Shown: positions 3,827 through 43,621 of the stretch, in pieces
How positions within the stretch are numbered: the first letter of the stretch is position 1
How the letters are laid out: each line of letters starts with the position of its first letter
From: Chloroflexota bacterium
Lineage (GTDB): Bacteria > Chloroflexota > Anaerolineae > JAAYZQ01
Direction: 5' to 3'
NCBI GenBank assembly: GCA_018606645.1
Contig: JAGVRI010000003.1
Span: forward strand, 27,322 to 91,321
DNA length: 64,000 bases
The notes under the pieces: generated by a model
What the model was told of the DNA's origin: nothing
Databases searched by the model: none
Seen by the model: only the letters and a program-made list of their open reading frames with translations
Program-made: the position numbers and the translations under genes

Positions 3827-3878
3827 CTGACGAGAGGAGGGGATGGGGCATGGGAGCGACCGGACCCCTCCCCCCGGC

Positions 3879-3917
3879 CCCCTCCCCGCGTGCGGGGAGG
3901 GGGTGCGGGGGTGGGGT
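3879..3917. repeat. C-rich perfect palindrome followed by G-run (G4-like) motif
   Basis: cccctccccgc-gt-gcggggagggg palindrome then gggggtgcgggggtggggtg; related motif seen at 19771-19836 and 21245-21294. Confidence 0.5.
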
Positions 3918-5921: not shown

Positions 5922-8897
5922 CTAGACCCTGCCATCCAATATATCGCGCACTCGCTGGAGCAGTTCCTCCACGTCAAAAGGTTTGGACAAAAAGTGCGCG
6001 CTGTCCTCCAGCACGCCGTGGTGGGCGATGCTGCGGCCGGTATATCCGGACATATAGAGCAGCCGTGTTTCCGGACGACTGAGGTGCAGGCGTTCGGCCA
6101 GCGCTCGACCGCCCAATCGCGGCATGACCACATCGGTCAGTAACAGATGGATGGGTCCCTCATGTTCCGCCGCCACCTGGAGCGCCTCGACCCCATCCTG
6201 CGCGGTCAGCACCAGGTAGCCATGGGTGGTCAGGATATCCCGGACCATCTGCCGCACCAGGACCTCATCTTCCACCACCAGCACGGTTTCCGTCCCCTGC
6301 ACGGCGGTCATGGTCGCCTCAGCCGGGCCGGCTGGCAGGGAGCCAATACTGGCTGCCGCTCGCGGCAGGTAGAGTTTGAAGGTGGTGCCCTGTCCGACCT
6401 CGCTTTCGACGCTGATGTGTCCTTGCCATTGGCGGACGATCCCGTACACAGTGGACAGGCCCAGGCCGCTGCCCTGACCGGGCCCCTTGGTGGTGAAGAA
6501 CGGCTCAAAGATGCGAGCCTTGACCTCTTCGCTCATTCCCACCCCGGTGTCACTCACCGACAGCAGGACATAATCGCCTGGCTCCAGTCCAAAGTACTGG
6601 TTGGTGTAGGACCGGTTGAGGAGGACGTTGGATGTCTCGATCCGCAGACGGCCGCCCTGGGGCATGGCGTCGCGGGCGTTGATCGCCAGGTTGAGCAGCA
6701 CCTGATCGAACTGGGTCGGGTTGATCTCGACCGGCCACAGGTCCTCGCTGAGCGACAGGACGAGCTCGATGTCCTCGCCGAGAAGGCGGGGCAGCATCCG
6801 GCTCATCTCGCGGATGCCCTCGTTCAAGTTCATCTGCTGGATCTGGATCGGCATGTGGCGGCTGAGGGTCAGCAGTTGGCGGCTGAGCTCGGCGGCCCGC
6901 TGGCGGGCTTCGTCGATGCGCTGCAATTGCAGGTGGAGGGGATCGGCCGGGTGGAGCTGCTGGCCCATCAGCCGGGTGCTGAGCTGGATGATGGTCAGCA
7001 GGTTGTTGAAATCGTGGGCCACCCCGCCGGCCAGGCGTCCGACCGCCTCCATCTTTTGCGCCTGATAGAACTGCTCCCGGAGCCGGTCTCGCTCCTCCTC
7101 CGCCCATCTGCGCTCGATGGCGAGCGCTACCTGGGATGCGACCGAAGCAAAGAACTCCTTGTCGCGCTCCGAGTACCGGTTCGGATCTTCATAGTTCTGG
7201 ACGGCCATCACGCCGAGGATCCCGTCGGGCGTCTTGAGGGGCGTCCCCAGCCACGAGGCCGAGTTGGCGCCCACCAGTTCCACTTCGCCGCGCGCCAGCA
7301 ACTCGTCAAACTGGGTCTGGTTGACCAGAACCGTCTGGCCGGTGCGATAGACGTACGAGGCCAGGCTCTTTTCGAGTCGAGAGGGAGGCATCGGCTCGTC
7401 GTATTGGTCCACCGTAAAGACTTCTTCGAACAGGCCGGTTCTCTTGTTGTACAGGACGACGAAAAAGTTCTCGGCGTCGATCACCCGGCCGATGAGCCGG
7501 TGGATGAGGGGGAAGAATTCCTGAAGGTCGGTGGCGGTGGCCACGCCTTGCAGGATCTCGAGCATGACCTGGCGCTCCTCCTCCGCCCGCTTGCGTTCGG
7601 TAATGTCGCGGGCAATGCCACCAAACCCGGCTATCCTCCCCTCTGCATCCCGGAGCAGCCAGGCCTTGGTCTGGACCCAGATCGTTCCTCCATCCCGTCT
7701 GGTCAGGCGGAATTCGATGGCTGGCCGAATCCCCCGGACCGTGTCCACAGGTTCCCCGTTCAGGGTGCTCTGGACGCGCGGCAGCAGGAAGGGAAGGTCT
7801 TCTTCATGCACATATTCGGAGAGATGGTGTCCCACAACTTCTTCAGGCTCGTAGCCGATGAAGGCTTTGATGGAGGGATTGGCAAACAGGACATTTCCCT
7901 CCCGGTCGATGGTAAAGACCAGGTCGGTGGTGGCGTTCAGCAGGTCCCGGTATCGCTGTTCACTTTGTCTCGTTTCCTCGTACAGGTGGGCGTTGGCTAC
8001 GGCTATCCCGATCTGTTGCCCTACGGCGATCAGCAGCGCCTTGTCCTCTTCAGACCAGGACCGGCGAGCCCGTGTGGCCACCGCCAAGATGCCCAGGACC
8101 TTCCCGGCGTGCAGCAGAGGGACCATGGCCGAGAGGGTAAACCCGACGGGCTTGATGGCGGGATTCACCCCGGGATCGTTGGAGGTGTCCTCGTGGAAGA
8201 TCGGTTCTCCGTGGAGCAGCAGACGTTCCCGGTTCCCGCCGGCCCGGACTCGACCGAGGAAAGCTTCCCCGACGCGGGGGTCCACCCCTCGTGTGACCAC
8301 CCGCTCCAGGCGCTGTTCCTGTTCCTTCCACAGGGTAATGCCCCCTGCCTCGAAGCCAATCGCCTGCAAGGCGGCGTCCAGCGCGGCGGCCAGGACCCCC
8401 TCCAGGTCCAGCGATCGGCTGACTGCGGCGGCGACGGCGTTGAGGGCAGCCAGATCACGGGTACGTCGTTCGATCTCTTCCCCAGCTTGTTTCTGTTCGG
8501 TGATATCCATGAGGGCAACCTGCAACGCTGGCCTCCCCTGGTAATCCATGATCCGGCCCATCGCCTGCACCCAGCGCACCCGACCGTCCTTGCACTGCAA
8601 GCGGAACTCCCGGCGATCCACCGCAGGCTCACCCGCCAGCCGCTTTGTCACGGCCCCCCAAACCTGTTCTTGATCCTGGGGATGGACCATGGCTTCGACC
8701 TGTGCTGGCGAGAGGGCAAGCAGTTCCTCCACGGAGTAGCCGCTCATCTCCGCCGTGGCTGCATTGGCAAAGATGATCCGACCATCCTGAAGGATGATCC
8801 AGCCCTGCCACGAATGCTCGACCAGGGCCCGGTAGACTTCGGTGGCCAGCCGCTCATTCTCTGGTCCTTGAAACCATTCTACTGCCTGGGTGTTCAT
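5922..8897 (-). CDS. hybrid sensor histidine kinase/response regulator with multiple PAS and GAF domains
   Basis: 991 aa; repeated PAS-like segments, GAF, HisKA (HDFNN), HATPase (GxGxG) and C-terminal receiver (VLVVEDE...LLLTDVVMP). Confidence 0.85.
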   Translation of the reverse strand: MNTQAVEWFQGPENERLATEVYRALVEHSWQGWIILQDGRIIFANAATAEMSGYSVEELLALSPAQVEAMVHPQDQEQVWGAVTKRLAGEPAVDRREFRLQCKDGRVRWVQAMGRIMDYQGRPALQVALMDITEQKQAGEEIERRTRDLAALNAVAAAVSRSLDLEGVLAAALDAALQAIGFEAGGITLWKEQEQRLERVVTRGVDPRVGEAFLGRVRAGGNRERLLLHGEPIFHEDTSNDPGVNPAIKPVGFTLSAMVPLLHAGKVLGILAVATRARRSWSEEDKALLIAVGQQIGIAVANAHLYEETRQSEQRYRDLLNATTDLVFTIDREGNVLFANPSIKAFIGYEPEEVVGHHLSEYVHEEDLPFLLPRVQSTLNGEPVDTVRGIRPAIEFRLTRRDGGTIWVQTKAWLLRDAEGRIAGFGGIARDITERKRAEEERQVMLEILQGVATATDLQEFFPLIHRLIGRVIDAENFFVVLYNKRTGLFEEVFTVDQYDEPMPPSRLEKSLASYVYRTGQTVLVNQTQFDELLARGEVELVGANSASWLGTPLKTPDGILGVMAVQNYEDPNRYSERDKEFFASVASQVALAIERRWAEEERDRLREQFYQAQKMEAVGRLAGGVAHDFNNLLTIIQLSTRLMGQQLHPADPLHLQLQRIDEARQRAAELSRQLLTLSRHMPIQIQQMNLNEGIREMSRMLPRLLGEDIELVLSLSEDLWPVEINPTQFDQVLLNLAINARDAMPQGGRLRIETSNVLLNRSYTNQYFGLEPGDYVLLSVSDTGVGMSEEVKARIFEPFFTTKGPGQGSGLGLSTVYGIVRQWQGHISVESEVGQGTTFKLYLPRAAASIGSLPAGPAEATMTAVQGTETVLVVEDEVLVRQMVRDILTTHGYLVLTAQDGVEALQVAAEHEGPIHLLLTDVVMPRLGGRALAERLHLSRPETRLLYMSGYTGRSIAHHGVLEDSAHFLSKPFDVEELLQRVRDILDGRV

Positions 8898-12880: not shown

Positions 12881-13067
12881 TGGGCCGTTCCGCAACCCCG
12901 CAGCCGGCTTGGCGACAGCCGCACACCCGGTGGTCCTCTCACACGGCTGAATGGGAAGGCTTCCCATGCCGGCATCAAATGCATCCGTTTTGACAGATAC
13001 AGGCTTTTCGTCTATAGTCTCTTTCGTTCATGGATGATGGTCTAGCAAGTCATGATCAGGAGGACTC

Positions 13068-13430
13068 GTGGCAGAGACAACTCGAAAGGCGGTCAGACCC
13101 AGGCCGTTCCGCAGTGAGATCGTCCGCGGCGAACCCACCCAGGTGGGCGAGCGAGCCTTGATCCCGGTGGCTCGTATCCGCTCATTCGGTCGCGCCAAGG
13201 GGATGGTGGGCGCTCACCGATTCGGGGGCTGGGGAGTGGGAGCCGCCCAGATCACACCGTTGGCCGTGATCGACACGAGCGAACGGGCTGAACGGACCAT
13301 CCCGATTGTGGATGGGACCGCACAGGCCTTGCGGTGGATGATTGCCTGGGCTGCGGCCATCACCCTATTACTGGCGGTGATCCGGCGACAGGTCCGGCAC
13401 CGGCGATCCCAAAGGGGAGGGCTCGCATGA
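13068..13430 (+). CDS. GerW/YtfJ-family protein
   Basis: GTG start with AGGAGG RBS 4 nt upstream; pattern ...IPVARI..FG.GGG..I.P.AVI and C-terminal TM; weaker match than its neighbour. Confidence 0.55.
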   Translation: MAETTRKAVRPRPFRSEIVRGEPTQVGERALIPVARIRSFGRAKGMVGAHRFGGWGVGAAQITPLAVIDTSERAERTIPIVDGTAQALRWMIAWAAAITLLLAVIRRQVRHRRSQRGGLA

Positions 13431-13452
13431 GACATCGGCGAAGGAGAGGCTC

Positions 13453-13848
13453 ATGATTCTGAATCAACTGTTCGACAAGATTGACCAGGTACGGGAAACG
13501 GCCAACTGGCAGGCCGCCTTTGGTCCACCGCAGGTTGTGGAGGGGAAGACGATCATCCCGGTAGCCCAGGTCAGCTATCTCTTTGGACTGGGGTTTGGCA
13601 GCGTGCTCGGCCCTGAAGCGGAAACCGAATCGGTTGGCGGCAGTCAGGGCGGCGGCGAGGGCGGAGGCGCCTCGACGAAACCGCTGGGAGCGATCGTCGT
13701 TACTCCGGATCGGGTCTATTTTGAACCGGTCCTGGATATGGGCAAGATCGCCTCGTTCGGGCTCGGTCTGGCGGCCCTGCTGCTGTTTCAACTGTCCCGG
13801 ACCATCCGCCTTGTCCTGGGACGGAAGGCAAGTCGGGCTGTTCGCTGA
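13453..13848 (+). CDS. GerW/YtfJ-family protein (Spore_YtfJ-like)
   Basis: ...GKTIIPVAQVSYLFGLGFG...GGGEGGGAS...GAIVVTP matches YtfJ/GerW signature; RBS AAGGAGAGG. Confidence 0.7.
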   Translation: MILNQLFDKIDQVRETANWQAAFGPPQVVEGKTIIPVAQVSYLFGLGFGSVLGPEAETESVGGSQGGGEGGGASTKPLGAIVVTPDRVYFEPVLDMGKIASFGLGLAALLLFQLSRTIRLVLGRKASRAVR

Positions 13849-13853
13849 CCAGA

Positions 13854-15170
13854 GTGTCAAGGGCCGCTATGGAGGGCTCCTGGTATCTGGGAGTGGCGCT
13901 GGCCCTGCTGGGGATCAGCATTGTCCTTGGAACCGGCCAGCTCGCCGTGCTTTATCCGCCAACTGGGGTCGAAACATCGAGACCATGGGGGACGGAAGGG
14001 TTGGAATTCTCATCCACGGTGCTGAACTCGGTCGGTCCATCCTGGCCGTTGACCCATTCGAACCAGGCCTTTCTGCCGCTGGTGGAGCGGGGGTTCAGGC
14101 TGACCCCGCCGGCGCATCTGGGGTATGGAGCCAACATTGCTGCTTCCGACCACGTCATCAGCCTGACGGCGATGGGGTTCGACTGGGCCAAGGGGTATGT
14201 CAAGTGGCAGGATGCAGGCTCCGGTCCCCAGTATGATTGGACGGCGGTGGATAACCAACTGCGTGAGTTTGTGCCCCGCGTCTCTCATGTCCTGTTGCGT
14301 TTGGATGGGCCTCCTCCGCCGGGTGTGGGCAACCCTCCGGTATCGGCCGGGGATCTGGCCGCTTTCCAGGCTTTCGCCCAGGCGTTGGCGGTCCATGTGG
14401 CCACCACCTGGCGCAGCCGGGGCCTGAGCACCATTGCCTACGAGATCTGGAACGAACCGAACCTCGGCGATGAATGGGGTGGAACGCCGAACGCCGCCCA
14501 ATATACCGCTCTCCTGCGCGCCGGCTATCAGGGCGTCAAGGCCGGCGACTCTCAGGCGATCGTGGTCAGCGCTGGCCTGGCTACGACCGGTGGTTCTCGC
14601 GCCGATCTTGCCCTGGCGCGGCGCCTCTACGGCGTGGATGCGGTTGTCCCTGATCTGACGTTTCTGCGGAATATGTACAAGAACGGGGCCAAGGGTTATT
14701 TCGACGCGTTGGGCAGCCATCCCTATGGCGGCCCGAATCCGCCCGACACTCCGCCGGGTTCCGCCACGGGGCCCATCTATTTCCGCCGCGCTGAAGAACA
14801 GCGCCAGGTGATGCTTGACTATGGGGACAGTTCACCGGTGTGGGCCACCGAATTTGGCTGGGTGTTGGAGACCGAATGCGACCTGGGAGAGCATGAGTGG
14901 ATGGAGGTGAGCGAGGCCCAACAGGCTGAGTACCTGGCGGCCGCCTATGCCTATGCCGATGAGCAGTGGCCGTGGATGGGGCCGATGTTCCTGTTCAACC
15001 TCGATTTCGCCACGGTTTACTGGTATCGCGAGTGCGATCCGATGCGATGGTATTCGATTACCTATCGCCAGAACCCATACGATCCGGGGAATTCTCCGGT
15101 GCTGCCCCGGCTGGCTTTTGAGACGCTGAAGGCCATGCCCAAGCGTTCGGCATGGACATCTTATGATTGA
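13854..15170 (+). CDS. membrane-anchored glycoside hydrolase, GH5-like (cellulase superfamily)
   Basis: N-terminal TM anchor; EIWNEPN acid/base motif and TEFGW nucleophile motif of clan GH-A; GTG start at 13854, alternative ATG at 13869. Confidence 0.6.
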   Translation: MSRAAMEGSWYLGVALALLGISIVLGTGQLAVLYPPTGVETSRPWGTEGLEFSSTVLNSVGPSWPLTHSNQAFLPLVERGFRLTPPAHLGYGANIAASDHVISLTAMGFDWAKGYVKWQDAGSGPQYDWTAVDNQLREFVPRVSHVLLRLDGPPPPGVGNPPVSAGDLAAFQAFAQALAVHVATTWRSRGLSTIAYEIWNEPNLGDEWGGTPNAAQYTALLRAGYQGVKAGDSQAIVVSAGLATTGGSRADLALARRLYGVDAVVPDLTFLRNMYKNGAKGYFDALGSHPYGGPNPPDTPPGSATGPIYFRRAEEQRQVMLDYGDSSPVWATEFGWVLETECDLGEHEWMEVSEAQQAEYLAAAYAYADEQWPWMGPMFLFNLDFATVYWYRECDPMRWYSITYRQNPYDPGNSPVLPRLAFETLKAMPKRSAWTSYD

Positions 15171-15185
15171 GGAAGATCGTCGCTG

Positions 15186-16907
15186 ATGTTGACGCAACTG
15201 ATCCATCGAGGCGTGGTTGTCCCTGAACCTCCTTCGCCCCGTGGCCTGAAGCTCATCATCCGGGGGGAGTGGGTGGAACTCACTCCCAAACAGGAGGAGA
15301 TGGCGCTGGCCTGGGCCAAGAAACAGGGCACTCCGTATGTCGAGGACCCAGTATTTGTCCGGAACTTCATGCAGGACTTTAGTCAGGCGCTGGGCATTCA
15401 TCCGCCCCTCCGGGTTGAGGAGGTAGATTGGAGCCCGGCCATCCAGATTGTGGAGGAGGAGCGACGGGCCAGGGAGCAGATGAGTCGGGAGGAACGCAAG
15501 GCGCTGGCCGCCGAGCGCAAGGCCAAGCGGGAGGCCCTTCGTGAGCAGTATGGGTATGCCATCGTGAATGGCGAGCGGGTAGAGCTGGGCAATTATCTGG
15601 TGGAGCCAAGCGGCATCTTTATGGGACGCGGCGAACATCCCCTCCGCGGTCGGTGGAAGGAAGGGGTGCGCCAGGAAGAGATTACGTTGAACCTCAGCCC
15701 CGACGCTCCCCGGCCGCCTGGCGAGTGGGGCGAGATCGTCTGGCAACCGGAATCGCTGTGGGTGGCCCGCTGGCAGGACAAGCTCTCGGGCAAGCTCAAA
15801 TATGTCTGGCTGAGCGACACCGCGCCGATCAAGCAACAGCGGGAGGCGCAAAAGTTTGACCGGGCGCATGCGTTGCACGCCCATCTGGATAAAGTCCGGG
15901 CGCAGATCCAGCGGGATCTGTCCGATCCGGACCCCAAGCGGCGCAAGCTGGCCACCGTGTGCGCCCTGATCGATCTGCTCTGTCTGCGAGTCGGTGACGA
16001 AAAGGACCCCGATGAGGCCGATACGGTCGGGGCGACTACGCTGCGACCGGAACATGTAAAGCTTCGGTCCGATGGGACGGCCGAGTTCCGGTTCCTGGGC
16101 AAAGATTCGGTCCTGTGGCACAAGACGGTGGCTCTGCCGGAAGAGGTACGCCGAAATCTGGAAGAGTTGATCCAGACCGCCCGTCCGCCCAACGTCAATG
16201 GCAAGAACAACCGGAACCGCAACGACGAAAAGCCGCAACTGTTTCCGGATATCAGCAGCCGCGACGTGAACGCCTATCTGTCGGGCATCCTGCCCGGCCT
16301 GACGGCCAAGGTGTTCCGCACCCATCATGCGACAATGACGGTGCGCGAGAGCCTGGAACGATCCGAGGTCAAACCGGACGATCCAGAGCATGTCAAATGG
16401 GAAGCGGCCAGCCGGGCCAACTACCAGGCGGCGGTGTTGTGCAACCACACCAAAAAGGCTCCAGCGACCTGGGACCGCAGTCGCCAGCGGTTTCAGGAGC
16501 GACGCCAGAAGGCCGAAGCGCGGGTCCAGGACTGCCGGGCGCGGGTCAAGCAGGAGCGCGAGACCCTGCTGGCGCTGCGACAGGAGGCGCGGGCCGCTCA
16601 GAACCCGCGGACCCAGGCCCGGCTGCGGAAGCAGATCGAGGCGGCCGAGCGCCGATTGAACCAGGCCAAAGAAGCGCTGGAGCGGGCGCGGTTGGCCCTG
16701 GATCGGATCAAAGCGCAGAGTTCGGTGGCGGCGATGAAGCGAACCTGGAATCTGGGCACCAGCCTGAAATCATACATTGACCCCCGGGTCTACTATGAGT
16801 GGGGGCAGCAGGTCGGCTATGATGTGCTGGAGCGCTACTATCCGGCCGCACTGCGGAACAAGTTTGCCTGGGTGCGAAACGACACCGAGGACCAGGAAGG
16901 GGAATGA
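15186..16907 (+). CDS. DNA topoisomerase IB, eukaryotic-type with N-terminal DNA-binding domain
   Basis: N-terminal segment aligns to eukaryotic Top1 core (VELTPKQEEMALAWAKK...FVRNFMQDF vs KLSPKAEEVATFFAKM...FRKNFFKDW); catalytic region RTHHATM and LGTSLKSYIDPRV (active-site Tyr in SKxxY). Confidence 0.85.
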   Translation: MLTQLIHRGVVVPEPPSPRGLKLIIRGEWVELTPKQEEMALAWAKKQGTPYVEDPVFVRNFMQDFSQALGIHPPLRVEEVDWSPAIQIVEEERRAREQMSREERKALAAERKAKREALREQYGYAIVNGERVELGNYLVEPSGIFMGRGEHPLRGRWKEGVRQEEITLNLSPDAPRPPGEWGEIVWQPESLWVARWQDKLSGKLKYVWLSDTAPIKQQREAQKFDRAHALHAHLDKVRAQIQRDLSDPDPKRRKLATVCALIDLLCLRVGDEKDPDEADTVGATTLRPEHVKLRSDGTAEFRFLGKDSVLWHKTVALPEEVRRNLEELIQTARPPNVNGKNNRNRNDEKPQLFPDISSRDVNAYLSGILPGLTAKVFRTHHATMTVRESLERSEVKPDDPEHVKWEAASRANYQAAVLCNHTKKAPATWDRSRQRFQERRQKAEARVQDCRARVKQERETLLALRQEARAAQNPRTQARLRKQIEAAERRLNQAKEALERARLALDRIKAQSSVAAMKRTWNLGTSLKSYIDPRVYYEWGQQVGYDVLERYYPAALRNKFAWVRNDTEDQEGE

Positions 16908-18259
16908 ATCGGCCCTATTCTCTCGGCCACTCGCCTCATGGCGAGACAGCGATGGCGCTGTTGCAGGCGGCGCTGGCCGCGGTTGAGCCAGGCCGGGCGG
17001 TCCACCGGTACGTCCGCCGCGAGGGAGATCGGCTGACGGTCGCCAACCAGGACTATGACCTGGCGGCTATCGAACGGGTGTGGGTGGTGGGAAGCGGGAA
17101 GGCGGCGACCGCGATGGCCGCCGCGCTGTACACTATCCTGGGCGAGCGGTTGACGGGCGGCCTGGTCGTAACCAAGTATGGCCATGCCGATCCTCGCCTC
17201 GCCACCGGTCCGGTGGAAGTGGTCGAAGGTGGACATCCCCTGCCGGACGAGGCGGGGTTGGCCGGGACCCAACGCCTGGTCCAACTCCTGGCTCAGGCGC
17301 AAGAGCACGATCTGGTGTTTGTGGTCCTTTCAGGAGGCGGATCGGCGTTGTTGACCTTGCCGGCCGAGGGCCTGAGCCTGGCCGACCTGCAACGGACGAC
17401 CGACCTCTTGCTGCGCAGCGGGGCGACCATTGGCGAACTGAACGCAGTGCGCAAGCATCTCTCACAGGTCAAGGGAGGTGAACTGGCCCGCCGCGCCGGT
17501 CAGGCTGAGGTGGTGGGCCTGATCCTCTCCGATGTCGTCGGCGACCCGCTGGATACCATCGCTTCGGGCCCTACCGCTCCGGACCCGACCACCTTTGCCG
17601 ACGCCTGGAGCGTGCTGGAGAGGTATGGGTTGACCGGGCAGGTGCCCGGGGCCGTGCGCGCCCGGCTCCAGGCCGGGTTAAGGGGTGAGGTGCCCGAGAC
17701 GCCCAAGCCCGGTGCGGCGCTCTTTGACCGGGTGCAGAATGTGATCGTCGGCAGCAACCGCCAGGCAGCCGAGGCTGCGGTCGAGACGGCGCGAGGCTGG
17801 GGGTATCATGCCCTGCTGCTTTCGACCTTTGTCGAGGGAGAAGCGCGCCAGGTGGCGCGGGTGGCGGCAGCGCTGGCCAAAGAGCTGGTGCACTATCATC
17901 GGCCGGTACCACGTCCCGCCTGTCTGGTGTGGGGTGGTGAGACGACGGTCACGGTGAGCGGACACGGCCTGGGTGGACGGAATCAGGAGCTGGCGCTGGC
18001 CGCGGCTCTGGCGATGGACGGCCTGCCCGACGTGCTGCTCATCGCCGTGGGCACGGATGGCACGGATGGCCCTACGGACGCTGCGGGGGCAGTCGCCACG
18101 GGCGAGACGGTGGCGCGGGCGCGAGCCATGGGGCTGGATGCCGCCGCCTACCTGGCCGACAACAACGCCTACCCCTTTTTTGACCAGTTGGGGGACCTGC
18201 TCCGGACTGGACCGACCGGGACCAACGTCAACGATCTGCTGTTCCTTCTGGCCGGGTAG
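16904..18259 (+). CDS. glycerate kinase (MOFRL family)
   Basis: MOFRL/glycerate-2-kinase-like; ATGA overlap with topoisomerase stop suggests translational coupling. Confidence 0.8.
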   Translation: MNRPYSLGHSPHGETAMALLQAALAAVEPGRAVHRYVRREGDRLTVANQDYDLAAIERVWVVGSGKAATAMAAALYTILGERLTGGLVVTKYGHADPRLATGPVEVVEGGHPLPDEAGLAGTQRLVQLLAQAQEHDLVFVVLSGGGSALLTLPAEGLSLADLQRTTDLLLRSGATIGELNAVRKHLSQVKGGELARRAGQAEVVGLILSDVVGDPLDTIASGPTAPDPTTFADAWSVLERYGLTGQVPGAVRARLQAGLRGEVPETPKPGAALFDRVQNVIVGSNRQAAEAAVETARGWGYHALLLSTFVEGEARQVARVAAALAKELVHYHRPVPRPACLVWGGETTVTVSGHGLGGRNQELALAAALAMDGLPDVLLIAVGTDGTDGPTDAAGAVATGETVARARAMGLDAAAYLADNNAYPFFDQLGDLLRTGPTGTNVNDLLFLLAG

Positions 18260-18306
18260 GAAGGCGCCGAATGCCACGCTGCTAAGAGAAAGGAAGGGAA
18301 AGGACG

Positions 18307-18690
18307 ATGCGCACGATCACGATCCGCATTGGCGAGGTAACCGCTCAGGCGGTGCTGTACGAGAACCCGACGGCCGAGGCCATCTGGGCCGCTTTGCCGT
18401 TCAGCGCGCGGGGAAACCGATGGGGCGACGAGATCTATTTCGAGGTCCCAGTCCGGTTGCCCCAGGCAGCGGATGCCCGCGACCTCCTGGAAGCGGGGGA
18501 ATTGGGCTATTGGCCGGTGGGCCACGCCTTTTGTATCTTCTGGGGACCTACCCCCGCCAGTCGCGGCGATGAGATCCGCGCCTACAGCCCGGTCAACGTC
18601 TTTGGCCGGCTGGAAGGCGATCCATGCGTTTTTGAGACGACGCCCGATGGGGCCGTGGTCATCGTCGAGCGCCAGGAGGGAGCGAAATGA
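18307..18690 (+). CDS. cyclophilin-like fold protein (DUF, PF04126-like)
   Basis: 127 aa, pattern consistent with the cyclophilin-like family of unknown function. Confidence 0.55.
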
Positions 18691-19703
18691 GCCGGAAACC
18701 GAACGTTTGGGTCACGCGCCTCATCCCCGAAGGCGGCCTGGAGCTGATCCGTGAGGCGTGCGAGGTGGAGGTCTGGACGGAGGAACTGCCGCCGCCTCGG
18801 GAAGTGCTCCTGGAGAAGGTGCGGGGCCGGGATGGTTTGCTCTGTCTGCTCACCGATCGGATCGACGCAGCGGTGATGGACGCGGCCGGTCCAAGCCTGA
18901 AGGTGATCAGCAACCTGGCGGTGGGCTATGACAACGTGGATGTGGCGGCGGCGACGGCGCGGGGCATCCCGGTGGGCAATACGCCGGGGGTGCTGACCGA
19001 GACGACGGCCGACATGGCCTTTGCCTTGCTCATGGCTGCGGCGCGGCGCATTGTGGAAGGGGTTGACTATGTGCGGGCCGGCCGGTGGCGGACCTGGGGA
19101 CCGATGCTGCTGCTGGGCTACGACGTGCATGGGGCTACGCTGGGGATCGTGGGCATGGGCCGCATCGGTCAGGCGGTCGCGCGGCGGGCCGCCGGCTTTG
19201 AGATGCGCATTCTCTATTTTGATCCCTACTGCGACCCTGGCAAGATTCCACCGGGGATCGAGGCGACGTGCTGCACCCTGGAAGAACTCCTGGCCGAGGC
19301 CGATTTCGTCAGTCTGCATGTTCCTCTCACCCCAGAAACCTATCGCCTGATCAACGCCGAGAGACTGGCCCAAATGAAGCCTACGGCGGTGTTGGTCAAC
19401 ACCTCGCGCGGACCGGTGGTGGATACCGAGGCGCTCTATCAGGCGCTGGCCTCGGGTCAGATCGCGTACGCCGCGCTGGATGTGACCGATCCGGAACCGT
19501 TGCCGGCGGACCACAAGCTGCTGACGCTGCCCAACTGCCTGGTGGTGCCGCACATTGCCAGTGCGAGCTGGGCGACGCGGACGCGGATGGCGCAGATGGC
19601 GGCGGAGAATCTGATGGCCGGGCTGCGGGGAGAGCGGCTGCCCCATTGCGTGAACCCTGAGGTGTACGGTTCCCAGCCGGGGCAATCGGAACCTGAGCGG
19701 TAG
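18687..19703 (+). CDS. D-isomer specific 2-hydroxyacid dehydrogenase (glyoxylate/hydroxypyruvate reductase-like)
   Basis: NAD-binding GxGxxG (GIVGMGRIG), catalytic R/E/H arrangement; 4-nt overlap with upstream gene. Confidence 0.85.
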
Positions 19704-19704
19704 C

Positions 19705-20007
19705 GGCGGAAGCCTCGACTATCTGGCCTGCGGCCGTGCGTCCCCCGGCAGAGACTTGACCCCCACCTAACCTCCCCCGTCAAGGGGGAGGGACTCGGAT
19801 CCCCCCTCCCCTGGTGGGAGGGGTGGGGGGAGGGGGCCGGTGGAAACGCGTCCGCAGCGGTCTATTTTCGGAGAAGTAGCCAGGCCCGGCTGGGCGCCAC
19901 GAGGGATGAGACTCGGGGCCTGTCAACGAATGGGAAACGAATCAACGAATGGACGCAGCTCCGGGTGGGGGAGTGGAGGCTCTAGGCGGCTGACCGGCTA
20001 AAGGGGG
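19705..20007. repeat. composite intergenic repeat region (family A half copy, G4/C-rich palindrome motif, degenerate family A copy)
   Basis: 19705-19723 ggcggaagcctcgactatc; 19771-19791 cctccccc-gtcaa-gggggagg hairpin; 19815-19836 gggaggggtggggggaggggg; 19970-20007 ggagtggaggctctaggcggctgaccggctaaaggggg. Confidence 0.6.
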
Positions 20008-20070: not shown

Positions 20071-20916
20071 TCATCCCGGCTGACCGGGGAGCTGCCACCG
20101 CAGGCGTTCCATGAGGGTCCGGTAGAAGTAGGTTCGGTCCTGGAAGCGCACAAACCGGCCCAGGTGGGGACTGGCCTGGACCGTGACCCAGTCGCCGTCC
20201 AGAAGCTCATATTCAAACTGACCGTCCACGGTAAGAATGGCCTGATGGTCGGTCCGGACCAGGACCTTGACCGTGGCTCCCTGCGAGAGGACGATCGCCC
20301 GGTCCATGCTCAGATGGGCGGCGATGGGCAACAGCAAAATGTTCTTGAGTTGGGGCGGCAGGATGGGACCGCCTACCGCCAGGGCGTAGGCGGTAGAGCC
20401 GGTTGCCGTGGAGACGATCAACCCATCGGCGGCATAGGTGGTCAGGTAACTGCCGTCAATGTAGGTCTCCAGGCGGACGATGCGAGCCAGGCTGCCGCGG
20501 CTGATGACGACATCGTTCAGCGCTTCGTATTGGCCCCGGCAGACTTCACCGCGGTGGTACTCGGCATAGAGCATCATCCGCTCTTCGATCCAGTAATCTC
20601 CGGCCAGCAGGCGAGGCAGAATGGAGGGCCACTGCCCGGGTTCCAGCTCGGTCAGAAAGCCAAGCCGTCCCATTTTGACCCCCAACACCGGCACGCCATG
20701 GTGGCTGGCCATGCGGGCGGCGCGGAGGAGCGATCCATCGCCTCCCAGCGTCACCAGCAGGTCCAGCGTGGCGATCTCCTGGGCGACGGCGGCTTCGTCC
20801 CATGTCGAGCCGATCCAGGTGGCCAGGCCGTGTTTCTCCAGGTCGCGGGCCATGGCCTCGGCCACGGCGGGGGTGGCGGGGAGCTTGGGGTGGTGCAGCA
20901 GGCCGATTCGTTTCAT
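20071..20916 (-). CDS. nadK: NAD kinase
   Basis: GGDGS motif (LVVTLGGDGSLL), NADK fold; start at MKRIGLLHH. Confidence 0.85.
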   Translation of the reverse strand: MKRIGLLHHPKLPATPAVAEAMARDLEKHGLATWIGSTWDEAAVAQEIATLDLLVTLGGDGSLLRAARMASHHGVPVLGVKMGRLGFLTELEPGQWPSILPRLLAGDYWIEERMMLYAEYHRGEVCRGQYEALNDVVISRGSLARIVRLETYIDGSYLTTYAADGLIVSTATGSTAYALAVGGPILPPQLKNILLLPIAAHLSMDRAIVLSQGATVKVLVRTDHQAILTVDGQFEYELLDGDWVTVQASPHLGRFVRFQDRTYFYRTLMERLRWQLPGQPG

Positions 20917-20983
20917 CGTCATCATCTCGCTCGTCAGTGAATCCGAGACCATTATAGCCGATTTGAGGCAAACTGTCCATTGG

Positions 20984-21012
20984 TTGACAGGCGTTCTCGG
21001 CGGTGGTAGAAT
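20984..21012 (+). promoter_or_regulatory. sigma70-like promoter TTGACA-N17-TAGAAT
   Basis: ttgaca (20984-20989), 17-nt spacer, tagaat (21007-21012); faces the peptidase/xseAB genes, leaving a ~320-nt leader. Confidence 0.5.
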
Positions 21013-21244
21013 ACGCTGCAGTGCAATGGAACCGATTGATGCGGACATGCTCAGGACAAGCCCGAAGATCGGTCTGTCCTCCGGCGCGCTCGCCTGTCGC
21101 TCGAAGCGGCGGGCTCAGCCAGCGAAGCCCCTTTCGGGGCTGGGAAACCGGCTTTCACGGGACTTGACATGCGTGGTGGGGGCGGCGCGAGGGATGGAAA
21201 TATCGAGGAGTTGGCACGGCCAGACCTCTCCTCATCCCCCCGGC

Positions 21245-39126: not shown

Positions 39127-40200
39127 ATGTCTCATCGAGAAAAAGAAAGTGGTCAGTCAATTGTAATCATTGCGTTTGCCATCATGATGCTTTTGGCGCT
39201 GGTGGCGATCGTCGTGGATGTGGGCAATGCCTATGCCCACCGCCGGATGGTGCAAAATGCGGTGGACGCGGCTGCCCTGGCCGGGGCGCGGAAACTGGCC
39301 GACCGGATGGTGGCGAGTAACCCGGACAGCGTGAAACATATCCACGTGTCCTATCAGATCAGGCGCTATGCGCAAGAGAACGGCCTGCCGGTGAGCGAAC
39401 CCGGCATCCTCCAGGCGTGGTTCATTGACAAGAACGGGAATCGGCTCGAACAGGTGCGGCCCAGCCCGGATTTCATCAATCCCCAGGCCAGAGGGGTTGA
39501 GGTCATTGGCAAGCTGCCCTTTACGACCTATTTTGCCCACCTGCTTGGTTTCTCGACGATGGAGGCGGCTACCTCCGCCCGCGCCTGGGTGCTGCGCGGT
39601 CCCTGCAATGGGGATAGTCTGTTCCCGGTAGGGATCGCTCAGAGTATCTTTGGAGGCGGTGGCGTTCCTCAACCTGGGACAACCTACACCATGTGGGACA
39701 AGACCAAGGAGGCGCCCGGTCAATTCGGCTGGCTGTACTGGAAGGACGGGAACGGTGTGGTGCGGGGAACCGAGCCGCCGCAGCAGAACTCGAACACGAC
39801 CAATCTGGCGGCAAACATCCTGGACACCTCACGCAGCGGTGCGTGGCGGGTGAATGATTGGGTGCACGGCAGCAGCGGCGTCAGCTTCCAGCCGGTCCTG
39901 GATGAGCTGGAACAGAGGATGGGTTCTTCCCACACCGTCATCGTCCCGATCTACGATCAGGTTTCGGGAACGGGGGACAACGCCGTGTACCGAATCGTGG
40001 GCTTTGGCGCCTTTCAGATGACCTGCGCCTATAGCTCAAAGAGCCATTATGTGGAAAATCCGAGTGGGTCGTGCGCTCCTTGTCGGGAGGAAGACAAACC
40101 GTGCATCCGAGGGACGTTCGTGCGGATGATCGAACCGAGCGGCGACGATGGGTGCCTGGACACCGGCGTCGTCATCCCTTCGTTCCGGATGCCCAAATAG
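39127..40200 (+). CDS. TadG-like / Tad_N-domain pilus assembly protein
   Basis: N-terminus ESGQSIVIIAFAIMMLLALVAIVVDVGNAYAHRRMVQNAVDAAALAGA typical of putative Tad-like Flp pilus-assembly (PF13400); RBS GGAGGTG. Confidence 0.7.
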   Translation: MSHREKESGQSIVIIAFAIMMLLALVAIVVDVGNAYAHRRMVQNAVDAAALAGARKLADRMVASNPDSVKHIHVSYQIRRYAQENGLPVSEPGILQAWFIDKNGNRLEQVRPSPDFINPQARGVEVIGKLPFTTYFAHLLGFSTMEAATSARAWVLRGPCNGDSLFPVGIAQSIFGGGGVPQPGTTYTMWDKTKEAPGQFGWLYWKDGNGVVRGTEPPQQNSNTTNLAANILDTSRSGAWRVNDWVHGSSGVSFQPVLDELEQRMGSSHTVIVPIYDQVSGTGDNAVYRIVGFGAFQMTCAYSSKSHYVENPSGSCAPCREEDKPCIRGTFVRMIEPSGDDGCLDTGVVIPSFRMPK

Positions 40201-40215
40201 CCCTTTCTCGATGAT

Positions 40216-40251
40216 CCTGAGCGAGGGCGGGCGTTCCCCCCCTCGCTCAGG
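40216..40251. repeat. perfect 12-bp stem / 12-nt loop hairpin after TadG-like gene
   Basis: cctgagcgaggg-cgggcgttcccc-ccctcgctcagg; no downstream T-run. Confidence 0.5.
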
Positions 40252-40420
40252 ACCTGGGCCAACCGGCCGCGGGCATGAATCCGCATCCTCATGCTCCCGC
40301 GGTCAAATCACAAACCAGGCAATGGCCAGGAAAAGTGTTCCGCCGTACCCCCTGGCGCGATCAGGAAGGAAGCTGAAACCCATGCAAGCGACTGTCAACT
40401 GCCCGAGGAGAAGAAACCCG

Positions 40421-43400
40421 ATGTTCCGGTCTCTGCTGCTCGCCGTGCCCCTGGGACTTCTGGGAGTGCTTGTCTTTGTCCTCTCCTCCAACGCGTACGT
40501 CACCCAGAAGGGCGAGACCACGCTGGTGGATTTCGATAGCGGCACCTTTATCTACACCGGGTTGCTGGATATCCCCGAGCAGGGGATCGATAGTGTGCAG
40601 TTGCTGCCCATCGGATTGACCGGGGACTGGGAGGTGGCCAATCGGTCGTTGCCGCTTCGGCTGACGGACCATGCCGTGGTTGCGCACGGGGACGCCATCT
40701 ATGTGGTCGGTGGCACTGACGAGGAGTATGCCGTCCATGATGAGGTATTCATGACCCAAATGTCCCTGGACGGACAGCTCTCCCCCTGGCAATCCCAGAA
40801 CCCACTGCCGGACCCTCGCTCTGCCGCCGCGATCGCGACCTACCGATTGGACGCGGACAATTCATTCCTGTATGTGCTCGGAGGAATCGGATCTGACTTT
40901 GGTGCCACCGACACGGTATACTATGCGCCCATCAATGATGAGACGGGAGAGCTCGGGGCCTGGCAACTGGACAGTCAAAGCCTCCCCAATCCGGTCTACT
41001 ATGCGGCTGCGGTCGAGCATGATGGCGCCCTGTATGTCATCGGCGGGGCGGGTGATACCGTCTTTGATCAGGTGTACTATGCGACGGTCCAGGAGGATGG
41101 TTCATTGGGTTCGTTCATCGCCACCTCCTCGCTTCCCGAACCGCTGTACGACGGTCTGGCCATCGTCTATGAGGGGGAGCCGGTCGATACGCTGTACTAT
41201 ATCGGCGGTCGGAACGCCATTACCTCTACTTTCAAGGTCTATTTTGCCGACTTTGTGCCCGGTGGAGGCTTGAGCGCCTGGCAACTTTCTCAAGGCAATC
41301 TGCCGGGTCACCTCTTTGGCCACGACGGCACCTTGCTGAGCGGGGAGATCATCCTCACTGGGGGGATTGTGGATTCCATCAATCCATACGTCGGCATTTC
41401 CAACACCGTGGAAGCGGCTCTGGTGGATCCTGGCAACCCGGCATTTCGCCTGTACGACTGGTGCCTGGGGGTGCCGCCTCCGACCTGTACCATCGGCGCC
41501 TGGCAAACCGGGAGTCTACTCCCGGACGTGCGCGCCCGTCATGGCATGGCCTCCGGCCACGGGCATCTCTACGTCCTGGGTGGAGTGGATTCCACCCAAT
41601 ACCCACGAGATACCATCTATGTGGGTTCTGTCACCGGCTTTGGCGCGCGCTACTCGCCGGAGGGGTATTACATTTCTGACCCGATTGACCTGGGGCCGGG
41701 GGTGGCCCTTCGGCGGCTGAGTTGGGGGACGACCATTCACGATCCTGCTCACATGGGGCTGGAGATGCAGTTCCGCCACACCAGCGACGGTCAAATCTGG
41801 TCCGAGTGGTCCACACCCATTCCTTCCATCAGCGGCACGAACCAGATTGACCTGGATCCGCCACTGACCGGGGTCCACTATCTCCAGTATCGGGCCCACC
41901 TGACCACGACTGTCTCCCATGCGTCTCCGCTCCTGGATTGGGTGGAGATCTACTATGAGGTTCCGGATCCAGAGGTTGCGGTGTATAAGGACACCGGTGG
42001 GGTGATGACCGTGACTCTGGGCGACCACCTGGAATATACCATCTACTACACCAACTATGGCGGGTGGACGGCCGAGAATGTGGTCCTCACCGAGACCCTG
42101 CCGGCGCACACGAGCTACGTAGGAGGGTCAGGTTGGCATCAGGTGGCCGGTACCAATATGTATACCTATGACGTCGGCAACCTGGCGCCCGGAGCGAGCG
42201 GCAGCGTTCCCTTCCCGATCAAGGTGAATGACGACGTGCCTCTCGAGACCCGGTATCTCACCAATACCATCGAAATCGCCTACCCTCCCATGCTCGACGC
42301 GCTGGCGGAGTGGGTGACCGATCCGGAACCGGGCAATAATACCTTTGCGCTGGCGACCCGCTTTAGCCCGTATGCGATCACCGTTGCCAAAGACTCGGAG
42401 CCACCGCCGGGCGAACCGGTCGCTCCCGGCGAGATCATCACCTATATCCTGACCTACTCCAACCCGGTGGGAGCGGTCAGCGTTCCGCAGGCCTACCTCC
42501 TCGATGCGCTCCCGGAGCATGTCAGCTATATTCCGGGCTCCATCTTTGGGCCCGGGGCGGACGCCAGCAACCCACGAGAGCTCCGCTGGGACCTCGGCGT
42601 CGTCGGACCTGGGGAGACGTATCAGGTGGGCTATGCGGTCCAGGTGGATTCCTCGACTCCGTTGGGAACTGTCCTGTCGAATACGGCCACCCTGTACAGC
42701 GATATCGGTCCTCCCAGGACGAGCAATTGCGTCGAGACTCTGGTCGTGGACAAGACGTACCGGGTAGAGGTCAACAAGGAGGCGGTGCCCTCTCCGGGGA
42801 GCACCGTGGCTCCTGGCTCGCTGATCCACTACACTCTGTATTACACCAACGCCGGCTTTATCGCGGCCAGCCAGGCGGTGTTGACCGAGGTCTTTGATCT
42901 GAACCAGAGCTACTCGCTGGTGTCGGCCGATCCGCCGCCGGACGTGATGCCCAATGTCTGGCACCTGGGCGCGCTGGGACCTGGCCAGAAGGGGGCGATT
43001 GACCTGGTGGTCCAGCTCGACGACGTGTTGCCCAGTCACTGGATCGTCAGCAACCAGGCCGTGATCGATAGCCCGGAAGGGGTGCCATCGTATACTCCGG
43101 TCATCACGCACCTGGTCATGAATCCACCGGAGGTCCCCCTGGTTGATCTGGTGGTGGGGAAGGTGCGCATGGAGCCTGCTGAACCCAAGCCGGGCGAACC
43201 GGTGGCGTTCTACGTAACGATCTCCAACACAGGCAACCTGAACGCCAGCGGCTATTTCTGGGTGGAGTTGTACGTCAAGTCTGCGCCCTCGGAACCTCCC
43301 CGTGGGCCCTCTGACCATGATCAGGGGTACTGCCTGAACGGGTGCTCGATCGTGCGCCCGTACCATCTGGTGCTGGTCAACAGTCTGGGGAAGGGGGCGA

Positions 43401-43621
43401 AGAAGGAGATCAAGTTCGCAAACGAGAAGTTGTTCTTCCCCACGGAGGGCGCCTATGATGTGTATGTGCAGGTGGACGTGGCCTTTGACGATCCACGTTA
43501 CAGCCCATATTGGGGCTTTTATCCGGAACACCATGAAGGCAACAACATCGTCCACGAAACGGTGTTCATTGGCGGGGTACCGCGATACTATTTGCCCGCG
43601 GTGTACAAGCGGTGGCCATAG
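40421..43621 (+). CDS. large secreted/anchored protein with Kelch-like beta-propeller and multiple DUF11 domains (candidate pilus-associated adhesin)
   Basis: 1066 aa; signal/anchor MFRSLLLAVPLGLLGVLVFVL; repeated ...YVxGG... blades (AIYVVGG, FLYVLGG, ALYVIGG, LYYIGG, LYVLGG), then several DUF11-type repeats (GDxLEYTIYYTNxG..., GEIITYILTYSN, GSLIHYTLYYTNAG); RBS GAGGAG. Confidence 0.7.
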   Translation: MFRSLLLAVPLGLLGVLVFVLSSNAYVTQKGETTLVDFDSGTFIYTGLLDIPEQGIDSVQLLPIGLTGDWEVANRSLPLRLTDHAVVAHGDAIYVVGGTDEEYAVHDEVFMTQMSLDGQLSPWQSQNPLPDPRSAAAIATYRLDADNSFLYVLGGIGSDFGATDTVYYAPINDETGELGAWQLDSQSLPNPVYYAAAVEHDGALYVIGGAGDTVFDQVYYATVQEDGSLGSFIATSSLPEPLYDGLAIVYEGEPVDTLYYIGGRNAITSTFKVYFADFVPGGGLSAWQLSQGNLPGHLFGHDGTLLSGEIILTGGIVDSINPYVGISNTVEAALVDPGNPAFRLYDWCLGVPPPTCTIGAWQTGSLLPDVRARHGMASGHGHLYVLGGVDSTQYPRDTIYVGSVTGFGARYSPEGYYISDPIDLGPGVALRRLSWGTTIHDPAHMGLEMQFRHTSDGQIWSEWSTPIPSISGTNQIDLDPPLTGVHYLQYRAHLTTTVSHASPLLDWVEIYYEVPDPEVAVYKDTGGVMTVTLGDHLEYTIYYTNYGGWTAENVVLTETLPAHTSYVGGSGWHQVAGTNMYTYDVGNLAPGASGSVPFPIKVNDDVPLETRYLTNTIEIAYPPMLDALAEWVTDPEPGNNTFALATRFSPYAITVAKDSEPPPGEPVAPGEIITYILTYSNPVGAVSVPQAYLLDALPEHVSYIPGSIFGPGADASNPRELRWDLGVVGPGETYQVGYAVQVDSSTPLGTVLSNTATLYSDIGPPRTSNCVETLVVDKTYRVEVNKEAVPSPGSTVAPGSLIHYTLYYTNAGFIAASQAVLTEVFDLNQSYSLVSADPPPDVMPNVWHLGALGPGQKGAIDLVVQLDDVLPSHWIVSNQAVIDSPEGVPSYTPVITHLVMNPPEVPLVDLVVGKVRMEPAEPKPGEPVAFYVTISNTGNLNASGYFWVELYVKSAPSEPPRGPSDHDQGYCLNGCSIVRPYHLVLVNSLGKGAKKEIKFANEKLFFPTEGAYDVYVQVDVAFDDPRYSPYWGFYPEHHEGNNIVHETVFIGGVPRYYLPAVYKRWP

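Follow-up and report, generated by a model that had tools for sequence, protein, structure and literature searches.

The window analysed here, a stretch of 64,000 nucleotides from a Chloroflexota bacterium (contig JAGVRI010000003.1), contains four consecutive open reading frames (ORFs) on the plus strand. They encode a type IB DNA topoisomerase (TopIB, 573 aa, 15186-16907), a putative glycerate kinase of the MOFRL family (451 aa, 16904-18259), a cyclophilin-like protein (PF04126, 127 aa, 18307-18690) and a D-2-hydroxyacid dehydrogenase, putatively of the glyoxylate/hydroxypyruvate reductase type (338 aa, 18687-19703). An earlier interpretation made from the letters of this DNA (the sequence-only reading) had placed the four ORFs at the same coordinates and had regarded them as a single operon mixing DNA topology and C3-acid metabolism. 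With its 573 aa, the first of these proteins represents the entire long form of TopIB known from eukaryotes and archaea, lacking only the charged N-terminal tail specific to eukaryotes.

The N-terminal part of the protein (residues 4-209, 15195-15812, plus strand) matches the Topoisom_I_N profile (PF02919), i.e. core subdomains I-II or the CAP module, with an E-value of 5.5e-53 over profile positions 5-213 of 213. This end-to-end match bears out the view of the sequence-only reading that the N-terminal core subdomains of eukaryotic Top1 are present. The catalytic core Topoisom_I (core subdomain III; PF01028, 7.9e-62) follows at residues 214-451 (15825-16538, plus strand), and the C-terminal domain Topo_C_assoc (PF14370, 3.6e-12) comprises residues 507-569 (16704-16892, plus strand). 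Residue 4 aligns to profile position 5, the charged N-terminal domain of the eukaryotic enzymes (about 200 aa) thus being absent, and in the human chain 1rrj_A, which is truncated, residue 21 is the counterpart of residue 6. A viral-type N-terminal domain was not matched in the 573-aa protein by Pfam. The protein is therefore not of the poxvirus-like form of about 340 aa, as had also been stated before, since the short TopIB of Deinococcus aligns to the catalytic core only.

The catalytic residues R287 (16044-16046), K306 (16101-16103), R378 (16317-16319), H421 (16446-16448) and Y530 (16773-16775), all encoded on the plus strand, align to R488, K532, R590, H632 and Y723 of human Top1. All five were invariant in the alignment of bacterial loci (75/75). 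The catalytic tyrosine named by the sequence-only reading is indeed present within the motif TSLKSYIDPR, but its surroundings read S526-L-K528-S-Y530 and not literally SKxxY, which is the human arrangement (SKLNY). The spacing between the catalytic His and Tyr amounts to 109 residues, compared to 91 in the human enzyme and 67 in CsTOP1 of Caldiarchaeum subterraneum.

Among sequences of the PDB the best match was CsTOP1 (6z01, 1.4e-139). Human Top1 was matched across residues 6-565 (about 1e-77) and the yeast N-terminal fragment 1ois with 8.3e-32. An AlphaFold2 (AF2) model calculated from a diverse alignment of 40 sequences reached a pLDDT of 92.9 and a pTM of 0.85; a model for which just 10 closely related homologues had been aligned (pLDDT 60.3) was discarded. 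Superposition of the accepted model on the closed human Top1-DNA structure 1k4t by Foldseek gave TM-scores of 0.84/0.85 and a root-mean-square deviation of 3.4 A over about 579 columns. According to DSSP, two antiparallel helices of this model (residues 429-470 and 474-518; 16470-16739, plus strand) are equivalent to the linker of the human enzyme. The enzyme is apparently active.

In front of the catalytic tyrosine (S529, codons of both at 16770-16775), Ser was present in all of the 75 aligned bacterial loci, as it was in the Asgard-like sequences described below. CsTOP1 and a Nitrososphaeraceae sequence have Asn there. The human chain 1rrj has Ser before Tyr, too, and is a camptothecin-resistance mutant according to the title of the entry; we take the wild-type human residue at this position to be Asn722. 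The conserved Ser of the bacterial proteins thus occupies the position at which an Asn-to-Ser exchange confers camptothecin resistance on human Top1, which is a small side point here.

Long TopIBs are widespread in bacteria. A word-indexed search yielded 5821 TopIB homologues, the top 120 of which were all at least 67% identical to the window protein and had the same three domains. An exhaustive search of representatives clustered at 50% identity gave 3604 matches with E-values up to 1e-3 and 642 with E-values up to 1e-30. A scan of GTDB species genomes with a pair of peptide patterns found a long TopIB in at least 543 species genomes; one pattern (CLRVGDEK) was restricted to bacterial-clade representatives among those checked. 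The best 80 GTDB matches were all bacterial metagenome-assembled genomes labelled Anaerolineae, Thermoflexia, Ardenticatenales, KSB1, 'Cytophagia' or simply 'bacterium'. Most of them belong to Anaerolineae and other Chloroflexota, and a second group carries the labels KSB1, 'Cytophagia' and 'bacterium'. With regard to sequences from outside the bacteria, the window protein shows 46% identity to CsTOP1 (563 columns), 42-43% to the representative P0134 and about 30-31% to human Top1.

In a neighbour-joining (NJ) tree of 134 full-length sequences (491 columns, simple corrected distances), the bacterial long TopIBs were monophyletic with a support of 97/100 and split into a Chloroflexota-type (83/100) and a KSB1-type (96/100) subclade. 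Together with the representatives P0130, P0131 and P0134 they formed a group supported by 100/100. The Thaumarchaeota/Aigarchaeota sequences, including CsTOP1 and P0149, and the eukaryotic enzymes were located elsewhere in the tree. Labels were available for some representatives (P0134 Heimdallarchaeota, P0149 Nitrososphaeraceae, P0129 Chloroflexota), P0131 carrying none. P0130 is encoded on an 80-kb contig (L081), on which a gelsolin-domain gene (8017-8616) directly adjoins the TopIB gene and a gene of the MJ0207 family is present, too. Because of these neighbours P0130 was judged Asgard-like, and the gene content of L081 points to an Asgard archaeal contig. Type III CRISPR genes (RAMP/Cmr5) were also seen on it.

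Two independent characters agree with the grouping of bacterial and Asgard-like sequences. The first is the motif '...LKSY', common to both, compared to '...LRNY' in the Thaumarchaeota type; the second is the His-to-Tyr spacing of 109-210 residues in bacteria and Asgard-like sequences versus 67-79 in the Thaumarchaeota type. Since the deeper prokaryotic branches are archaeal wherever they are labelled, we provisionally assume one transfer from archaea to bacteria followed by spread within the bacteria. Whether a single old transfer from an Asgard-type donor seeded the whole clade, which would have persisted as an essentially undescribed branch in several hundred or more species, chiefly Anaerolineae among the Chloroflexota and also bacteria of the KSB1 type, is in our view evenly balanced.

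TopIB is not the first gene of the series to which it belongs. According to a crude gene map, a tightly spaced run of co-directional genes (13068-19703) starts three unrelated genes upstream of it and continues to the dehydrogenase gene with spacings of 22, 5, 15, -4, 47 and -4 bp; it was counted as an eight-gene run with TopIB inside. Its first gene encodes a 120-aa protein without a Pfam match (13068-13430, plus strand), which is kept beside the YtfJ-like gene in relatives and has orthologues of 110-117 aa in the loci L085, L086 and L087. A Spore_YtfJ-like small protein (131 aa, 13453-13848, plus strand; PF09579, 6.7e-8) comes next, followed by a 438-aa protein without a Pfam match (13854-15170, plus strand), whose stop codon lies 15 bp ahead of the TopIB start. 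The trio (13068-15170) recurs 5' of TopIB in related genomes. Some homologues of the 438-aa protein appear to carry additional PKD-like repeats at their N-terminus, namely a 682-aa ORF in L028 (by eye) and an ORF in L087 with a weak PKD match.

To place this arrangement in context, 80 loci from GTDB species genomes were compared, 63 of them with at least 1.5 kb of downstream and 67 with upstream sequence. No universally conserved neighbour of TopIB was found when up to three ORFs per side were clustered in 75 of the 80 loci. The largest cluster of neighbours was the YtfJ-like gene, which 13 loci have upstream of TopIB, and a homologue of the 438-aa protein was located directly upstream in 9/80. 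These counts exceed the number of loci with a kinase gene downstream, and together with gaps of just 5-22 bp they might suggest that TopIB is functionally tied to the 120-aa, YtfJ-like and 438-aa proteins rather than to the genes behind it. However, of the 67 loci whose upstream sequence is available, fewer than half show the arrangement. All of these are Chloroflexota-type loci nearest to the window, the KSB1-type clade having no case of it, and the three proteins have no known DNA-related function. We consider such a partnership very improbable.

The sequence-only reading took TopIB, kinase, cyclophilin-like protein and dehydrogenase for a translationally coupled operon because of overlapping stop and start codons; spelled out, this view would have the operon under selection and its products acting together. 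Two of the three junctions within the four genes indeed have the sequence ATGA, in which the TopIB stop overlaps the ATG of the kinase gene (16904-16907) and the stop of the cyclophilin-like gene overlaps the ATG of the dehydrogenase gene (18687-18690). The kinase and cyclophilin-like genes do not overlap but are separated by a gap of 47 bp, the latter gene having a strong Shine-Dalgarno sequence of its own. The kinase start at 16904 is genuine as judged from an N-terminal alignment, in which the residues 'PYS..SPH' just behind it are conserved in homologues. In the closest relative, L085, the TopIB and kinase genes overlap by 4 nt as well, as GTGA with a GTG start. Further 4-base overlaps occur in the window at 30027 and 50464, and thus this feature is ordinary for the genome. 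Among prokaryotes in general, overlaps of 4 bases are the commonest class.

Beyond the overlaps at 16904 and 18687, the former of which L085 shares, a coupled operon would be favoured by the lack of promoter- or terminator-like sites between the genes, by the persistence of the gene order in 14 loci of one subclade and by a single ORF for TopIB and aminotransferase in L087 and L088. The comparison of loci does not agree with it. Only 5/80 loci had a glycerate kinase gene at a distance of up to 6 kb downstream from TopIB, and in one of them it was directly adjacent. When the aminotransferase described below was also taken as a marker and four loci from an exact look-up were added, the linkage of TopIB with the metabolic genes was confined to one subclade of the bacterial TopIB tree, with 14 loci showing it and 11 not, and it occurred in none of about 50 loci outside this subclade. 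The gene following TopIB varies and encodes an aminotransferase, a putative GalT-like protein (by eye from the translation), an SDR, a HAD-like protein or others. Furthermore, the run holds unrelated upstream genes, and we know of no biochemical link between a swivelase and glycerate metabolism. An operon uniting DNA topology and C3-acid metabolism as a functional unit is therefore very improbable. The combination of genes, called unusual before, is rare, and we ascribe its rarity to chance in how the genes are arranged locally.

The most plausible explanation for the junction came from the gene order of relatives. In most of the linked loci a gene for a class-V aminotransferase of the serine/glyoxylate type (Aminotran_5, PF00266) lies between TopIB and kinase. 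It is missing in the window and L085, and separately in L009, and by its absence the kinase start was brought against the TopIB stop. A tblastn search gave no match for the aminotransferase elsewhere in the window. Judging from these gene orders, the junction of TopIB and kinase is a lineage-restricted synteny tightened by the loss of an intervening gene, i.e. ordinary synteny and compaction, from which no connection of DNA topology with metabolism should be deduced. A single ORF of 972 aa (P0039; L087 6001-8919 and L088 2550-5468), seen in two metagenome samples of the JGI, spans TopIB as well as the class-V aminotransferase behind it. It has the junction sequence ...FAWVRDENGGENGEMEERGAGRTGMPALRPGHIKLMIPGPVD... 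and could be a true fusion or the result of a lost stop codon in a single lineage.

Concerning transcription, the sole strong promoter-like site in a consensus scan was TTGACA-17-TATAGT (12990-13018, plus strand), which corresponds to a sigma-70 promoter by a consensus match of 11/12 positions. It is located about 50 bp 5' of the gene that opens the run, in the gap from which the run and the ABC transporter genes diverge, and could serve as promoter for the whole run. None was detected directly ahead of TopIB or the kinase gene, and consensus scans revealed no convincing terminator inside the run before 19703. Directly behind the dehydrogenase gene, where the run meets the convergent gene for NAD kinase, C-rich/G-rich hairpins (19771-19836, plus strand) in the intervening gap probably mark the end of the transcription unit. 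The promoter-like site ahead of the run, the lack of an internal terminator and the hairpins behind it make co-transcription of 13068-19703 plausible. Similar hairpins (CCTCCCC...GGGGAGG) are present at 3867-3900; both positions are gaps between convergent genes, and the hairpins may be terminators or REP-like elements.

The metabolic genes form a self-contained block, TopIB being its upstream neighbour. The recurring unit consists of aminotransferase, kinase, in some cases the cyclophilin-like protein, and reductase, and faces a convergent gene for NAD kinase. The latter (20071-21048, minus strand; PF01513 and PF20143) delimits the block on the right as a conserved boundary and occupies the equivalent position in L009, L022, L032, L085 and L088. 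The cyclophilin-like gene is optional, since it is absent between kinase and dehydrogenase genes in L032, L060 and L087. An aminotransferase, a kinase and a reductase of these types would constitute a module leading from serine via hydroxypyruvate and D-glycerate to phosphoglycerate. The kinase matches DUF4147 (5.4e-87) and MOFRL (1.9e-41) in Pfam and reaches 238.8 bits against the NCBIfam glycerate 2-kinase model NF041176 (cut-off 550) and 188.9 bits against NF040791 (cut-off 670). By these matches it is a MOFRL (class II) glycerate kinase at family level only. The dehydrogenase matches the 2-Hacid_dh_C/2-Hacid_dh pair (PF02826, 2.8e-66; PF00389, 1.1e-33), and its best NCBIfam model was glyoxylate reductase PRK13243 with 409 bits, just under the cut-off of 455.

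The TopIB gene does not stand out from its surroundings. Its codon-position GC content (0.69/0.43/0.77) and overall GC content resemble those of the neighbouring genes, among them genes for an ABC transporter, Spore_YtfJ, NAD kinase, a peptidase of family S58 and a PAS/GAF hybrid histidine kinase. The contig of L085 shows the same gene order as the window on both flanks of TopIB; there, the genes for both subunits (large and small) of exonuclease VII follow the S58 gene. The TopIB encoded on this contig, with 85% identity, is annotated 'Anaerolineae bacterium'; from such relatives and from its gene content, the host of the window is probably a member of the class Anaerolineae. Homologues are also located within bacterial contigs of 2.1-5.2 Mb (L003, L071, L076), excluding a binning artefact for those. 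Scans of the whole window for tRNA genes and Rfam families gave no hits and hence neither an rRNA gene nor a tRNA-type integration site, and no phage match was found. Plasmid-borne TopIBs were of the short form only and matched the core with 28-34% identity. A viral or plasmid origin was rejected on the lack of a phage match and the restriction of plasmids to short-form cores. Taken by its sequence context, TopIB is at home in the bacterial chromosome. That it is foreign, be it by eukaryotic or archaeal contamination, mis-assembly or as recent cargo of a virus or mobile element, is hardly conceivable: elsewhere, such a domain architecture is characteristic of eukaryotes and archaea, and the literature knows bacterial TopIB as short form only (PMC4824112, PMC8748870), but besides the lack of a compositional break, the collinear flanks, the Mb-scale contigs and the negative scans, the gene has prokaryotic translation signals with overlapping stop and start codons, and the bacterial sequences form a clade of their own with 57-85% identity to the window protein.

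In summary, the protein would act as a clamp-shaped swivelase, in which the CAP module (residues 4-209) and the core (214-451) close around duplex DNA. Y530 would nick one strand by a 3'-phosphotyrosyl link with the assistance of R287, K306, R378 and H421, and rotation of the DNA would be damped by the coiled-coil linker before the nick is resealed. The gene is a resident chromosomal one, common to several hundred bacterial species and most likely acquired once from Asgard-type archaea. The ancestral order in this lineage may have been TopIB followed by class-V aminotransferase, glycerate kinase, in part a cyclophilin-like protein, and hydroxypyruvate/glyoxylate reductase, the metabolic block presumably running from serine via hydroxypyruvate and D-glycerate to phosphoglycerate. 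Once the aminotransferase gene had been lost in the lineage of the window, the kinase start would have come to abut the TopIB stop, a side effect of the genome becoming more compact in this one lineage. The genes of the run 13068-19703 are probably co-transcribed and would not be functionally coupled. We consider it likely that this explanation as a whole holds, i.e. a working long-form TopIB encoded by a resident bacterial gene of Asgard-type origin, with a junction produced by compaction and without functional coupling.

Several observations weigh against it. Both the affinity to Asgard sequences and the donor-recipient direction are provisional, coming from a simple-distance NJ tree with few labelled prokaryotic tips, in which P0131 and several of the deeper branches carry no label. 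Kinase and reductase score below the equivalog cut-offs of NCBIfam, their substrates thus being putative. At TopIB identities as low as about 64% the order of TopIB and metabolic block is still retained within the subclade, 14 of its 25 informative loci showing it. The 972-aa ORF, seen in one population, leaves a small chance that the linkage is under selection.

A complete long TopIB in a bacterial chromosome, with nearest non-bacterial relatives that are Asgard-like, contrasts with a literature that knows only short forms from bacteria. TopIB thereby loses some of its value as a "eukaryotic signature protein" and as a phylogenetic marker of certain archaea. The finding also raises the question which benefit a Top1-type swivelase offers to bacteria already possessing gyrase and topoisomerase IA. 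If confirmed, our interpretation would provide a bacterial system for the study of Top1-type swivelases. The origin of eukaryotic Top1 could then be addressed with an additional outgroup or sister lineage. Chloroflexota have acquired the archaellum cluster from archaea (PMC12488501), and the long TopIB would fit this pattern as another archaea-to-Chloroflexota transfer.

Two further proteins of the window were observed apart from this locus. A 942-aa protein (52602-55430) has a C-terminal domain of the ILEI/FAM3 type (PF15711, 7.8e-17), a family named after animal proteins. A 1157-aa protein (40148-43621) with Kelch beta-propeller repeats and repeats of the DUF11, DUF7927 and CARDB type is probably a surface protein.

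Compared to serine cycle, photorespiration and glyoxylate assimilation modules, the window contains matching families, namely a 2-Hacid_dh protein putatively of the GhrB/glyoxylate-reductase type and a MOFRL kinase. The Aminotran_5 counterpart is present in the block of relatives but missing from the window, and unlike those modules the block has an added cyclophilin-like protein.

Long-form TopIB was reported in Thaumarchaeota in 2008 (PMC2621148) and later extended to Aig- and Bathyarchaeota and several Asgard phyla (PMC8371274; 10.1101/858530; 10.1101/2021.04.02.438162). In Gerd-, Thor-, Balder- and Hermodarchaeota it was listed as a eukaryotic signature protein (bioRxiv 10.1101/858530; 10.1101/2021.04.02.438162). 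Up to 2022, long TopIBs of prokaryotes were considered archaeal and those of bacteria short and poxvirus-like only (PMC4824112, PMC8748870, PMC8371274), and a structural paper of that year draws bacterial TopIB as the short form (Takahashi 2022, PMC8748870). In the open-access literature we found no paper on bacterial long TopIB or on TopIB in Chloroflexi, Chloroflexota or Anaerolineae. Public records already annotate such proteins as 'DNA topoisomerase I [Anaerolineae bacterium]'. It appears that the sequences are known to the databases and that the bacterial distribution of the long form is undiscussed in the literature.

The short TopIB of Deinococcus radiodurans (2f4q/3m4a) has the catalytic-core fold and the tyrosine chemistry in common with the window protein. 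It is said to have been described by Krogh and Shuman in 2002 as a poxvirus-like short TopIB. The structure 2f4q aligns to residues of about 200-395 only (2.9e-8) and, in the structural comparison, over 242 columns (TM-score for the query 0.27); the short bacterial and poxvirus enzymes cover about 240 columns. Poxvirus-like short enzymes of about 310-350 aa have a small, different N-terminal domain and no linker, in contrast to the 573-aa protein studied here.

The window model matches the fold of human Top1 (Topo70; 1k4t, 1a36) across the whole chain including the linker, and all active-site residues are present. It differs by an identity of only about 30%, by the lack of the charged N-terminal domain of about 200 residues and by SLKSY instead of SKLNY, and the eukaryotic enzymes are located opposite to all prokaryotic long forms in the NJ tree.

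CsTOP1 (6z01/6z03) and the Thaumarchaeota TopIBs show the same three-domain architecture without a eukaryotic N-terminal tail, and an identical catalytic pentad. For CsTOP1 and the enzyme of N. viennensis, relaxation of positive and negative supercoils independent of ATP and Mg and by a 3'-phosphotyrosyl intermediate has been demonstrated (Dahmane 2016, PMC4824112). The window TopIB deviates from this type by its bacterial host and its His-to-Tyr spacing (109 versus 67-79 residues). From CsTOP1 and the Nitrososphaeraceae protein it differs by Ser for Asn in front of the tyrosine and by belonging to a different clade. The Asgard TopIBs are the nearest group in the NJ tree (P0134, P0130) and have the TWNLGTSLKSYIDPR motif and an extended linker in common with the bacterial proteins; the bacterial clade is more uniform in length (about 570-600 aa), whereas the Asgard-like sequences have larger insertions in the linker and show a His-to-Tyr spacing of 123-210 residues.

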